Shown here: piece by piece, positions 49,518 through 53,773 of the stretch | Numbering within the stretch: the stretch's first letter is position 1 | How the letters are laid out: each line of letters opens with the position of its first letter | Assembly: GCA_964345045.1 (NCBI GenBank) | Contig: CAYFPM010000002.1 | Coordinates: forward strand, 140,330-204,329 | Origin: an uncultured Gammaproteobacteria bacterium | GTDB taxonomy: Bacteria > Patescibacteriota > Patescibacteriia > Magasanikbacterales > UBA922 | Direction: 5' to 3' | Length of the DNA: 64,000 nucleotides | The notes under the pieces: generated by a model | Database searches by the model: none | Seen by the model: the letters and a program-made list of their open reading frames with translations, nothing else | Told to the model about the DNA's origin: nothing | Position numbers and translations under genes: made by a program

Positions 49518-49793
49518 TTATTTTCTTTTCTCTATTTCTTTGTAAACAACCGATCTGTGTTCAATGGCAAATATTTTGACTAGTTTTTTCTCAATCCTAA
49601 ATATAACTCTATAACTACCTACTCTTAATTTTCTATATCCCTTTAGCGATCTACGCAAAGGCAAACCGAACAAATCTGGTTCTTTTATTAATTTGTTTTC
49701 AATAGCTAGACGAATTCTTTTTTTTGCTGTTCCTGATAATTTTTTTATATCTTCTTTTACCACTGCTTCGTGATAAACAATCTCGTAACTCAT
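49518..49793 (-). CDS. type II toxin, RelE/ParE family
   Basis: Start MSYEIVYHE. KGYRKLRVGSYRVIFRIE...IFAIEHRS is a typical ParE/RelE sequence. It overlaps the upstream antitoxin gene by 4 nt (49790-49793). Confidence 0.65.
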   Translation of the reverse strand: MSYEIVYHEAVVKEDIKKLSGTAKKRIRLAIENKLIKEPDLFGLPLRRSLKGYRKLRVGSYRVIFRIEKKLVKIFAIEHRSVVYKEIEKRK

Positions 49794-50011
49794 ACCCAAG
49801 CTTCTTCATGAGAGACAAACTTGGATTTTCTTTTGTCTCTAGAGGTTGCTAATTTATCCCACACCACATCTTCTTCTATTTCTAGAGCCAGACTAAGCAA
49901 CTCGGCTGCTTTGGTAGCAGTAGGCACCCCATCTCGACGAGCTACCTTGGTAAGCACAGTGTCTACTGGTTTGGACAAAGTTACATTAATTCTTTTTTTA
50001 TCTGTTGGCAT
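49790..50011 (-). CDS. ribbon-helix-helix antitoxin
   Basis: KRINVTLSKPVDTVLTKVARRDGVPTATKAAELL is an RHH beta-alpha-alpha element. Encoded upstream of the toxin. Confidence 0.55.
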   Translation of the reverse strand: MPTDKKRINVTLSKPVDTVLTKVARRDGVPTATKAAELLSLALEIEEDVVWDKLATSRDKRKSKFVSHEEAWV

Positions 50012-51443: not shown

Positions 51444-51470
51444 TCTTGACATTTTGTAAGTTGAGTTATA
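51444..51470 (+). promoter_or_regulatory. sigma70-like promoter TTGACA-15-TATAAA
   Basis: TTGACA at 51444-51449 and TATAAA at 51465-51470. Confidence 0.45.
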
Positions 51471-51485
51471 AAGTTAAGCCACAAT

Positions 51486-51640
51486 CAAAAAATATCAAGA
51501 GTGAGGATAGCGACTTGGCGCCACAACCCTCTACCAACCGAGCTTAACTACGGTGGTTCCAACCCCAATGGGAAAGATAGGCCTTTTAAACAAAAGGAAA
51601 ATAAGGAGTTTCTTATCTTATCCGGGTAAGAAATTTTTGT
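51486..51640 (+). ncRNA. candidate SAM-I (S-box) riboswitch with an intrinsic terminator expression platform
   Basis: P1 UAUC/GAUA. J1/2 AAGAG. Segments resembling the S-box consensus (AUCAAGAG, ACCAACC, GGUGnUUCC, GAAAGAUA). A terminator hairpin tttctta-N11-taagaaa plus a U-run lies at 51607-51640, about 75 nt before the ATG. Confidence 0.45.
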
Positions 51641-51716
51641 TTTATATGAGCAATATAAAATAGAAACTTCTTACTCACAAGAGATAAGAAGAAAATAAAG
51701 AACAACGGAGTTCACC

Positions 51717-52649
51717 ATGAAAGACGGAAAAGACACTTATTTCTTCAGCGATTGCTTTCAACACGGAAGCTCCCAATTTGATCCGAATGCCGCCTCCCGA
51801 ACGATGGCTCGCTTTCGCAAGATTAGTAGACAAATCAGGCCAGAAGTATCCCCACCTTTCCTCGACAGACAAGGAGCTTGGCGAGGGACTGACCTAGGTT
51901 TTCTGATGGCCGAGTTGGCTCATCAACACACAGGGCTGGTCATTGGTGGAAATGCTGCCAAGCGAATCCCTGGGAAAAAAAACGGAACTTCTTTTTCTTT
52001 GGCAACGGTAGGTGGCAACCTAATCCTTTCTACTGTGGGCAAAAACACCTACCCAGTAATGGCTCGTCTTCTTGGGCTAGACTCAATCGAAGTTGCCCTC
52101 CTCGATATCGGAAACGCTGCCCAGAAGATGAATGTCCAAAACAAAGAAAGGATGACAACCACTCAATACCGTTCGCTCTGGTTTCAAACAGCGGCTTTGG
52201 CTCAGCTGGCTCACCTCGAAACACTCCCCACTCACCCAAATTCGATCTTCGGCGGGGAAGTAAAAACAATCAAGCCTGACAGCGGAATGCGAATTGTCTA
52301 TATCGATAGCTTCGGAAACTTGAAGCTCTCTGGTAGAAGAAAAGACTTGCCCAAGGGAGAAAGAATCAAGGTCTCTTTCCCAGAAAAAGCACATCGAAAC
52401 CTCTCGCCACTTGGAGCGAACAACACAGCACATATCACAGGTGGAAGGGAAAACGAATTTCAAGTTTCAGTCGGATCAAGTATCCCTACCGAAGCAGGCG
52501 GTCTACTAGAACTCCAAATCCTCGGTGGAACTAGGATAGGAGTCGATACGGCTGCAGACAAAGTTCTAGGGCACTTCCTGGGCGTCCCGGACGTTCGCTG
52601 CCATCACGACCTCATAGGTATCAAAGTGAGGCTCAGCAAAGCCTCCTAA
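51717..52649 (+). CDS. DUF62-like protein (SAM hydroxide adenosyltransferase / SalL-FlA family), GC-rich gene
   Basis: N-terminus FFSDCFQHGSS. Central YRSLWFQTAALAQLA. C-terminal domain IVYIDSFGNLKLS resembles the D.FGN motif of DUF62 enzymes. Foreign-like codon usage. Confidence 0.4.
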   Translation: MKDGKDTYFFSDCFQHGSSQFDPNAASRTMARFRKISRQIRPEVSPPFLDRQGAWRGTDLGFLMAELAHQHTGLVIGGNAAKRIPGKKNGTSFSLATVGGNLILSTVGKNTYPVMARLLGLDSIEVALLDIGNAAQKMNVQNKERMTTTQYRSLWFQTAALAQLAHLETLPTHPNSIFGGEVKTIKPDSGMRIVYIDSFGNLKLSGRRKDLPKGERIKVSFPEKAHRNLSPLGANNTAHITGGRENEFQVSVGSSIPTEAGGLLELQILGGTRIGVDTAADKVLGHFLGVPDVRCHHDLIGIKVRLSKAS

Positions 52650-52673
52650 AACCTTCTATTAGTTTTGGCACAA

Positions 52674-52737
52674 ACGCAGGAAGCAGATTGAGTCTAGTCG
52701 ACAAACCTACGTCGATTGAGATTCTCGCTTCCTGCGT
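52674..52737. repeat. long imperfect hairpin acgcaggaagc...gcttcctgcgt after the DUF62-like gene
   Basis: Arms of about 28 nt with a few mismatches. No T-run follows. Confidence 0.4.
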
Positions 52738-52930
52738 TCGATCCATCTCTAAAAAACAATTATAACAACCTTACAAAAAAAGGTTTTTTATTTGTTTTTT
52801 ATAATTATATTGTACGACATTATTTATTATTTAATTTTAGTCATTTTTTACAAAAAATTAACAAGGGTAACTCTTCCTCCAAAACAATTTTACAAACCAC
52901 TCCTCTCAAACCACACCCTCAGACAAAAAA

Positions 52931-52946
52931 TGTTCCACGTGGAACA
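52931..52946. promoter_or_regulatory. perfect 16-bp palindrome TGTTCCACGTGGAACA (site 1)
   Basis: Exact self-complementary 16-mer with a CACGTG core. It shares flanking sequence ...tttgatt..gattt with site 3. Confidence 0.5.
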
Positions 52947-53089
52947 TTTTGATTCTAGATTTTTGGATTATGATTTCAAAAATCAAACATATCGCACCTC
53001 ACTTCAATTAAACCAAAATTTTACCTTATCTCGGTTTTGTTGGAACAAAATCAAATCAATAATTCCAAGCTCTTACATCTGCAATCATT

Positions 53090-53105
53090 TGTTCCACGTG
53101 GAACA
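53090..53105. promoter_or_regulatory. perfect 16-bp palindrome TGTTCCACGTGGAACA (site 2)
   Basis: Exact copy lying 60 nt downstream of the Ham1-like gene. Confidence 0.5.
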
Positions 53106-53164
53106 AAACAACAGCCTAAAAGCTGTTATTATTTTGTATACAATAGTGTGTACAATTATACTTT

Positions 53165-53773
53165 TTATTTTAAATATTCTTCTATAGATTTATCAAACAC
53201 TTCTTGTAAGTCGCTATATGCCAATAGATTTTCCTCTCTTTTCATTTCTGCATGAAACTTACCCAGTTTCTGGTTGTAGCAAAGTGCTGACAAAGGTAAC
53301 CCTGAAATATAATGGGGTTGATTGTCTACAAGTTTGAAAGCAAATTCTCTATTGTAGGCAAATTCTATTATTTTTCCTTCTGCAGTACAGATAGCAAAGG
53401 CAAAATGCCATTTGCCTCCTGTTAAGTTTTTTTCAACAATTTGTTTGTGCCAATAATCATATATTTCTTTATCTGTGGCTCTGGTCTTACCATCAAAAAT
53501 TCTTCTAGCATGCACCCCTGGTTGCTCAGCTTCTGAGATTTCATCTACAAACAGAGCAATGTCTACAGCCAAAACATCTGTTTTAAATTCACGAGAGTAT
53601 ACACTAGCCTTATATTTGGCGTTTTTTTCGGCAGTTTCAAAAGGCTCCTCAACTTCAAAATCAACAGAAAAATCATTCAAAGACTTAATCTCCAAATTCT
53701 CATATTTGACAAGGTAATGAGAAAAAAATTCCAATTTTCCAGAATTAGTTGTAGCCAAAGTTAATTCTTTCAT
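53165..53773 (-). CDS. Ham1/RdgB-family non-canonical purine NTP pyrophosphatase-like protein
   Basis: N-terminus LATTNSGKLEFF resembles the ITPase motif LATGNxGKxxEF. About 200 aa. Confidence 0.5.
   Translation of the reverse strand: MKELTLATTNSGKLEFFSHYLVKYENLEIKSLNDFSVDFEVEEPFETAEKNAKYKASVYSREFKTDVLAVDIALFVDEISEAEQPGVHARRIFDGKTRATDKEIYDYWHKQIVEKNLTGGKWHFAFAICTAEGKIIEFAYNREFAFKLVDNQPHYISGLPLSALCYNQKLGKFHAEMKREENLLAYSDLQEVFDKSIEEYLK

Follow-up and report, generated by a model that had tools for sequence, protein, structure and literature searches.

The SAM-I riboswitch (S-box; RF00162, clan CL00012) folds its aptamer for S-adenosylmethionine (SAM) as a four-way junction of helices P1 to P4, with AAGA in the J1/2 joining region, a CCAACC...GGUGG core at P3 and a pseudoknot between the P2 loop and J3/4, and it turns genes off through competing terminator and antiterminator helices. 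Its regulon in Bacillus includes methionine-salvage genes, and to our knowledge DUF62-like genes are not among the gene classes controlled by S-box leaders. Here we describe a locus in a 64-kb stretch of contig CAYFPM010000002.1 (hereafter the window, meaning the whole stretch analyzed), in which a leader with all of these features precedes a gene for a divergent protein of the DUF62/SAM_HAT superfamily; in sister loci, methionine-pathway genes (MetE-like and MetF) are under the same kind of leader.

The closest described enzymes of this superfamily are the DUF62 hydrolases and the SAM-dependent halogenases. The DUF62 hydrolases (PH0463, MJ1651, TTHA0338, StDUF62; PF01887 plus PF20257) are selective for (R,S)-SAM, the inactive epimer, which they split into adenosine and methionine (bioRxiv 10.1101/2025.08.29.672840; PMC10491745), and they strictly conserve a water-activating His-Arg-Asp triad that is missing from the halogenases (PMC10491745), namely the fluorinase FlA and the chlorinases SalL and ClA. 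The halogenases have an ion-binding tetrad, T-(F/W)-(Y/F)-S/G, and a Thr-rich β3-β4 loop (PMC12080486). The native function of DUF62 enzymes is debated; repair of (R,S)-SAM is one view, which has been doubted (PMC12120602). A full-text literature search on riboswitches in connection with DUF62 proteins, SAM hydrolases, chlorinases or fluorinases found no report of a SAM riboswitch ahead of such an enzyme, in keeping with the remark of an earlier note on this DNA that the pairing is unusual, and a literature search on SAM riboswitches in bacteria of the Candidate Phyla Radiation (CPR) turned up no such report either.

Riboswitch and enzyme superfamily are both of known kinds; judged from the sequences, the pairing of this aptamer variant with a DUF62-like family recurs in CPR bacteria. 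We consider it probable that a SAM-I-type terminating OFF riboswitch controls this distant DUF62/SAM_HAT member, whose role in SAM metabolism would most likely be on the supply side. The elements that carry this reading are as follows.

51489 to 51584, + strand: SAM-I-clan aptamer, from the Rfam RF01725 match and a covariance model built on other loci; its minimum free energy (MFE) fold is a four-way junction
51574 to 51619, + strand: antiterminator, the P1 3' strand AAGAUA (51574-79) with UAUCUU (51614-19), capped by a variable hairpin (51582-51597)
51604 to 51643, + strand: intrinsic terminator, stem 51604-51618 with 51624-51638, loop UAUCC, U-run UUUUUGUUUU at 51634-51643
51707 to 52649, + strand: open reading frame (ORF) of 310 aa for the divergent SAM_HAT/DUF62-superfamily protein, ATG at 51717, Shine-Dalgarno GGAG at 51707-51710

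A SAM-I-type aptamer with a short P4

The leader had been noted as S-box-like, and two covariance searches bore this out. In an Rfam scan of the whole window at gathering thresholds, which returned four tRNAs and one riboswitch, the only riboswitch match in the 64 kb was to the SAM-I/IV model RF01725 at 51487-51613, with 45.6 bits, above the gathering score of 41.1 (E = 3e-4 over the full window and 1.9e-6 for the region searched alone); the RF00162 score of the same element is a lower-scoring overlap, suppressed under RF01725 in the clan. An independent model, R1, came from 12 aptamers at other loci that pass the RF00162 gathering score; it excluded the window and L001, a 2-kb contig with the closest homologue of the gene. 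R1 found a single match in the window, at 51489-51584, with 63.5 bits and an E value of 2.8e-17.

The MFE fold of 51487-51645 contains P1, P2a/b, P3 and P4. In P1, UAUC (51493-96) is paired with GAUA (51576-79), while P4 consists of 3 bp formed by CCC (51563-65) and GGG (51570-72), and the pseudoknot between UUGG of the P2 loop and CCAA of J3/4, present in the window, is invariant among the relatives. In the 12 aptamers, 97.7% of cells were paired in the SAM-I structure with its pseudoknot, compared with 33-50% with the partners slid. The variable P3 pairs covary across these aptamers, and P2b shows a compensatory change from G-C to C-G in the window and L001.

The window copy departs from its relatives in the kink-turn (K-turn) of P2 (51505-51526), where both sheared G.A pairs are gone and UA/AA stands in place of GA/GA: the relatives read C-GA-GGG / CCC-NNU-GA-C and the window A-UA-GCG / CGC-CAC-AA-C. 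L001 and all other aptamers retain GA/GA, and the loss is limited to the window copy. The SAM-I/IV label of the best-scoring Rfam model was dropped. The window shares with that class a hairpin after P1, but it does not have the SAM-I/IV arrangement of a junction without P4 and a P4-like hairpin 3' of P1: its internal CCC/GGG helix is homologous to, and aligns with, the P4 of the SAM-I relatives, and the hairpin 3' of P1 caps the antiterminator. The label arises because the K-turn G.A pairs of the window are lost and the hairpin after P1 is accepted as the model's external P4. By homology and architecture, the element reads as a SAM-I-type aptamer with a 3-bp P4. It differs from described SAM-I elements in being a lineage-specific variant (CUACCAACC / GGUGGU..UCCAACCC, with the short P4) from CPR and unclassified metagenome genomes, in the window copy's loss of the K-turn pairs and best score as SAM-I/IV, and in an extra conserved hairpin behind the terminator, described below.

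Competing helices predict an OFF switch

A terminator as the expression platform was also part of the earlier reading, and it is present in the window as a stem at 51604-51638 with a U-run (folding energy, -12.9 kcal/mol). A consensus terminator scanner did not call it, the stem having too few G-C pairs. The same stem and U-run were found in the leaders of eight loci, and the terminator 3' arm GGGTAAGA with its U-run is invariant in the leader alignment A6. The antiterminator of the window has a folding energy of -8.5 kcal/mol, and all of the eight leaders but that of L001 have a counterpart in the predicted folds; these seven, the window's among them, can form three mutually exclusive helices, and in L001 the antiterminator alone is not predicted. 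Across the leaders, antiterminators range from -6.5 to -18 kcal/mol and terminators from -6.7 to -12.9 kcal/mol, the latter followed by UUUUUUGUUUU, and the hairpin that caps the antiterminator differs in sequence among loci and keeps its hairpin form. For the window, the aptamer-plus-terminator state is the MFE fold (-36.8 kcal/mol), and the antiterminator state lies 2.9 kcal/mol higher.

Because the antiterminator consumes the P1 3' strand, a ligand-stabilized P1 would favor termination, which is the classical OFF logic. The polarity of the switch is thus ordinary OFF as predicted from the competing helices. When SAM is bound, P1 would form, then the terminator, and transcription would stop ahead of the gene; when SAM is scarce, the antiterminator would form and the gene would be transcribed, along with methionine-synthesis enzymes elsewhere in these genomes.

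The protein is a distant branch of the DUF62/SAM_HAT superfamily

The N-terminal F-SD and C-terminal IDxFGN motifs, named earlier as DUF62 hallmarks, occur in the ORF as YFFSDC and YIDSFGN. The proposed check with the PF01887 hidden Markov model (HMM) failed: Pfam did not match PF01887 to the 310-aa ORF, PF20257 (SAM_HAT_C) remained below threshold at residues 192-223 (E = 0.0034; 18.1 bits versus 25.5), and NCBIfam gave nothing relevant. The placement in the superfamily comes instead from fold and profile-profile alignment.

Close relatives of the protein are scarce. Among 5.8 billion clusters searched, the single close nonidentical homologue is P0002, 61% identical and encoded on L001. An exhaustive HMMER scan of 1.84 billion representatives gave 16 proteins at E < 1e-3, mostly of 270-310 aa and many with PF20257 only, and a search seeded with one of these relatives gave 65 proteins. 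Few of the 65 carry a source name; those named come from Peregrinibacteria, Kerfeldbacteria, Absconditabacterales, Kaiserbacteria, Moraniibacteriota and the "Patescibacteria group". In many relatives PF20257 is above threshold, without PF01887, and three are labeled "SAM-dependent chlorinase/fluorinase" or "SAM hydroxide adenosyltransferase", the chlorinase/fluorinase name being used by NCBI for some. A search with the two-sequence alignment found no relative in the GTDB species genomes, a word-index search with a 15-sequence alignment recovered only three known proteins, and searches of phage, plasmid and viral-contig collections gave no relatives of the family.

AlphaFold2 with a 75-sequence alignment gave a model of high confidence (predicted local distance difference test score [pLDDT], 91.5; predicted template modeling score, 0.90); a model from the two-sequence alignment (pLDDT, 31) was discarded. 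The predicted structure consists of two domains folded as in DUF62 proteins. When it was compared with the PDB by Foldseek, the 31 best matches all belonged to the DUF62 superfamily with probability 1.00, among them MJ1651, a Thermotoga protein, PH0463, TTHA0338, SalL, ClA1/2 and FlA, and the next match has an E value of 0.05. A search of the PDB with the ORF sequence found no match, and profile searches linked the C-domain only. By hhalign, the family alignment was compared with PH0463, the Thermotoga protein, TTHA0338, MJ1651, FlA and SalL, with sequences taken from the PDB search; it aligned over 237 columns at 98% probability (E = 4e-13). On the predicted fold and these alignments, we regard the protein as established to be a distant branch of the SAM adenosyl-transfer (DUF62/SAM_HAT) superfamily, in a family found largely in CPR bacteria. 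The DUF62-like identity first proposed stands at the level of the superfamily, as seen by Foldseek and hhalign.

Altered residues in the active site

The superfamily-wide residues for binding of the adenosyl/methionine ligand, D12, D197, F199, G200, N201 and S254, corresponding to D16, D210, F213, G214, N215 and S269 of FlA, are each conserved in 72 to 75 of the 75 family sequences. With the hydrolases the family shares the Asp that binds ribose, the DxFGN motif and the GS(S)G serine, and its E265 aligns with the Glu of the hydrolases' "LE" motif. Unlike the hydrolases, to which it is about 13% identical, it has an N-domain that Pfam does not see, and the triad (H127, R75 and D68 in PH0463, the numbering checked against the PH0463 sequence and PMC10491745) is replaced by R152, F93 and A81, none of which varies among the 75 sequences. 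The alignment near residues 79-94 crosses an insertion, which makes the matches to D68 and R75 less certain than that to H127; only the QFRS/TFHG segment and the C-domain are securely aligned.

The missing triad is a feature shared with the halogenases. At the positions of the halogenase tetrad (PMC12080486), the family has Q150-F151-R152-S153, of which two of four match, including the Ser; Ser153 is aligned on Ser158 of the fluorinase and Gly131 of SalL. The family differs from the halogenases in this Q-F-R-S, as against T-F/W-Y/F-S, in a β3-β4 loop that is not Thr-rich (N-x-A-P-R...N-G-T-P-F-G, in a region of uncertain alignment), in keeping the hydrolase-type Glu, in having no halometabolite gene context and in its hosts, which here are CPR bacteria, known for reduced genomes. 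The family also has invariant residues of its own (C13, R28, N79, R83, N89-G90, Q150 and K203), among which the basic or polar N79, R83 and K203 are without counterpart in the solved enzymes, and the clade of the window protein carries two extra insertions (residues 15-21 and about 273-299). Taken as aligned, these residues indicate that the family is a distinct, uncharacterized branch with an altered active site.

The leader recurs ahead of methionine-pathway genes and other cargo

The leader of L001 matches that of the window, with promoter, aptamer and terminator all aligned. Two further family proteins, P0005 (locus L009) and P0011 (locus L010), are 27-28% identical to the window protein and lie behind matches to RF00162. 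The four leaders share the DNA pattern CTCTACCAACC...GGTGGT...TCCAACCC, and a search for it in GTDB species genomes and Joint Genome Institute metagenomes gave 18 further loci. The titled genome records at these loci are three Candidatus Magasanikbacteria, one Falkowbacteria, three "uncultured Gammaproteobacteria" and one unclassified bacterium. The RF00162 gathering score of 44.4 is passed by L009 (66.6 bits), L010 (45.3 bits) and 15 of the 18 pattern loci (45-67 bits); L001 reaches 42.8 bits.

Directly downstream of the aptamer, 7 of the 18 loci carry a family member, six with 297-313 bits against the family HMM (L021 and L024 having identical sequence) and L016 with only 29.5 bits. In total, 10 distinct loci have a family member behind this aptamer variant. 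Leaders are 60-71% identical between clades, whereas their proteins are only 23-34% identical. In three other loci (L013, 535-2319, - strand; L015, 4445-6262, + strand; L029), the aptamer precedes a fusion of a nucleotidyltransferase with Meth_synt_2 (MetE-like), or the N-terminal part of it, and in one (L019) it precedes methylenetetrahydrofolate reductase (MetF). From this company we infer that the window gene belongs to a SAM-repressed supply regulon, which in related genomes takes in MetE-like and MetF genes. Apart from the question of regulation, the fusions join a MobA-like nucleotidyltransferase to the catalytic domain of cobalamin-independent methionine synthase, which is unusual for a MetE-like enzyme.

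Six of the 18 loci (L014, L017, L020, L022, L028 and L030) have short GC-rich ORFs of 58-128 aa behind the same leader, which match no Pfam family and do not resemble the DUF62-like proteins; comparison ruled out that they are remnants of the family gene. Three of them lie in the tRNA-flanked syntenic frame of the window. They may encode small proteins under SAM control, or be cargo exchanged at a hot spot. At L023, the contig ends shortly past the leader.

Family members without a riboswitch occur in Peregrinibacteria, Kerfeldbacteria and Absconditabacterales genomes. One riboswitch-less member (L011, 1877-2803, - strand) is divergent to a gene for a homocysteine S-methyltransferase (PF02574; 3001-3846, + strand), a class of enzymes that recycle (R,S)-SAM in yeast; this neighbor makes a salvage role more plausible.

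Proposed role of the enzyme and alternatives

The gene would be on under SAM shortage together with MetE-like and MetF genes, and a supply-side role is therefore the most likely one. In the likeliest case the enzyme would salvage methionine (and adenosine) from a SAM derivative that the cell cannot use, such as (R,S)-SAM. The earlier note had seen a paradox in an OFF switch on a SAM-cleaving enzyme. The predicted polarity is indeed OFF; the paradox mostly disappears, given the return of methionine from (R,S)-SAM, the co-regulation with MetE-like and MetF genes and the missing hydrolase triad, and since the role would be one of salvage, no ON switch is needed to remove it. The ON-type variant put forward as one way out is not supported, given the predicted competition between antiterminator and terminator in the window and in the relatives' leaders, where AAGAUA of the P1 3' strand would pair with UAUCUU in the 5' arm of the terminator. 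An ON switch, or an enzyme that removes excess (S,S)-SAM, has in its favor only the a priori argument that a SAM-consuming enzyme is sensibly SAM-induced; with P1 and terminator arms competing in seven of the eight leaders folded, the window's included, and the same leader type ahead of MetF and MetE-like genes, we consider it highly improbable. The other way out, a different role in vivo, is favored by the altered active site.

Several points weigh against a SAM-responsive salvage hydrolase. The window copy, having lost the K-turn G.A pairs and scoring below its relatives, may bind or respond to SAM poorly. The triad substitutions speak against simple hydroxide transfer, and the name "(R,S)-SAM hydrolase" may not be right in every detail; the activity of the family enzyme is itself a prediction from sequence and fold. 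The leader also precedes the unrelated short GC-rich ORFs in syntenic loci, and the logic of the regulon may be looser than methionine supply. The first of these points bears on whether the riboswitch is decaying in this genome, with SAM-independent expression or termination, as a relic of a horizontally acquired cassette at a tRNA-flanked hot spot. The change from GA/GA to UA/AA in the window only, the score of its closest relative L001 against Rfam SAM-I (below most relatives), and the position of the gene in a GC-rich islet between tRNA-Ala(GGC) and tRNA-Arg(CCT), with different cargo in syntenic loci, speak for decay; yet apart from the K-turn the aptamer core is intact, as are pseudoknot, antiterminator, terminator and ORF, the locus is present in identical copies on six contigs read, from at least three sequencing runs of one project, L001 combines a canonical K-turn with the same gene, and searches gave no phage or plasmid relatives of the family. 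We think decay unlikely.

The second point opens onto new chemistry, to which we give a small but real chance: the enzyme may use another, probably anionic, nucleophile at C5' of SAM, or may run in the SAM-forming direction, from a 5'-X-5'-deoxyadenosine or nucleotide plus methionine. SAM feedback repression would then follow the same logic as for metK. The invariant Ala81, Phe93 and Arg152 in place of the triad, Q150-F151-R152-S153 at the halogenase tetrad with Ser153 on the fluorinase Ser158, the extra invariant N79, R83 and K203, and an OFF switch that groups the gene with synthesis genes all count for it, as does the ease with which SalL-type enzymes run in reverse in vitro. On the other side, the hydrolase "LE" Glu, missing from halogenases, is kept as E265, the Thr-rich β3-β4 loop of fluorinases is lacking, the gene context points to no adenosyl donor or nucleophile, and the alignment of the loop region is uncertain. 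In its widest form, which we regard as doubtful, the idea would make the family a fourth catalytic class with an Arg/Ser/Asn-lined site that transfers adenosyl to an anionic nucleophile or makes SAM from methionine and activated adenosine, under direct SAM feedback in a minimal methionine/SAM economy of ultra-small bacteria, and the leader a portable SAM-responsive cassette with varied GC-rich cargo.

On the supply-side reading preferred here, the riboswitch offers an unbiased physiological readout: a branch of the superfamily that would be wanted at SAM scarcity, alongside methionine-synthesis genes. This link gives a directly testable hypothesis on the substrate and direction of the enzyme. 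The active site of the clade differs from those of all solved members and is of interest since relatives of fluorinases and chlorinases are sought-after biocatalysts, and a riboswitch-defined regulon is added to the CPR bacteria, whose regulation is almost unknown.

GC excess of the genes behind the leader

The codons had been described as foreign-like and GC-rich, and the gene is indeed compositionally foreign-looking, with a G+C content of 0.49 in a window of 0.38 and neighbors whose G+C content at third codon positions (GC3) is 0.26-0.38. In 9 of the 10 riboswitch loci, the G+C content of the family gene exceeds that of the remaining locus. It stands out from AT-rich flanks in eight of them (GC3 of 0.48-0.79 versus 0.2-0.4), while L016 sits in a locus of 51% G+C and L025 is the exception (0.43 for the gene versus 0.41 for the rest). 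Strong outliers in GC and GC3 behind the aptamer variant, in AT-rich genomes (GC3 up to 0.79 versus about 0.3), are the family genes of the window, L001, L009, L010, L016, L018, L021, L026 and L027, plus the MetF gene of L019. In contrast, the riboswitch-less family members resemble their surroundings in composition, and neither they nor the MetE-like fusions are GC outliers. A single recent transfer is an inadequate explanation, since the excess is shared by copies with proteins only 61% identical. This systematic GC excess of the cargo and the hairpin that follows the terminator could be signs of new biology at the level of RNA or of gene transfer.

Hairpins behind the terminator and behind the gene

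Two further RNA elements flank the gene.

51624 to 51676, + strand: post-terminator hairpin, the terminator 3' arm and U-tract with a downstream copy of the 5' arm, CUUCUUACUC, at 51667-76
52673 to 52737, + strand: GC-rich 3' hairpin just past the stop codon, from the fold; near-identical in L001 (1811-1875)

The post-terminator hairpin is near-perfect, conserved and 48-53 nt long, with a folding energy of -20.9 kcal/mol for the window copy and between -18.8 and -26.3 kcal/mol for seven other leaders (L001, L009, L010, L018, L021, L026 and L027). Alignment A6, read by eye with no tool score, shows covariation at three bases, which are U-A-U in the window and L001 but A-U-A in L018 and L027. 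Because it is transcribed after the U-run, the hairpin cannot affect termination or act as an antiterminator. Its conservation and three-base covariation suggest a role in the read-through mRNA, where it may lock or stabilize the transcript or serve as an RNase III site. Spurious microRNA-like Rfam matches trace to this hairpin.

Segment 52660-52760 folds with -41.8 kcal/mol, mostly from the hairpin at 52673-52737, which matched no Rfam family. Other loci have in the same place two hairpins with an inner CGUCGA..UCGACG stem, and a strong hairpin lies past the stop codon in most loci examined. Downstream of the gene, the motif TATTGTRCGAC is conserved in four loci (about 52808-52818 in the window, about 1938-1948 in L001, and in L009 and L010); it may be a promoter or a binding site.

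Promoter and genomic setting

Upstream of the aptamer, the leader begins with a promoter.

51446 to 51474, + strand: sigma-70-like promoter, TTGACA (51446-51451), a 17-nt spacer and TAAAGT (51469-51474); consensus scan 10/12

The promoter of the 61%-identical homologue's locus, TTGACT-17-TAATAT, is aligned with it. The earlier note had given TTGACA-TATAAA, of which the TTGACA is the same; TATAAA is an overlapping hexamer at a spacing of 15 nt, and TAAAGT at 17 nt is preferred. The tRNA just upstream, on the opposite strand, is tRNA-Ala(GGC) according to ARAGORN, which ruled out a Met tRNA. The GC-rich islet of the window gene has tRNA-Ala(GGC) on one side and tRNA-Arg(CCT) on the other. Window, L010, L014, L022 and L028 have the syntenic frame tRNA-Ala(GGC), leader plus cargo, tRNA-Arg(CCT), RmuC and S20 in common, and the cargo within the two tRNAs varies from locus to locus.

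A scan for MetK signature motifs, which covered the 64-kb window and not the rest of the genome, found none. Behind the gene, at 52792-53187 (+ strand), a 131-aa ORF in a stretch of 28-32% G+C is an annotated gene in public assemblies; its sequence is low-complexity and hydrophobic, and it may not be a real gene. Farther upstream, at 49518-50011 (- strand), an ORF for a ParE-family toxin (93 aa in the ORF list of the window, 91 aa as called in L002) overlaps an upstream ORF of 73 aa, and the two are probably a toxin-antitoxin pair between RecQ and YchF.

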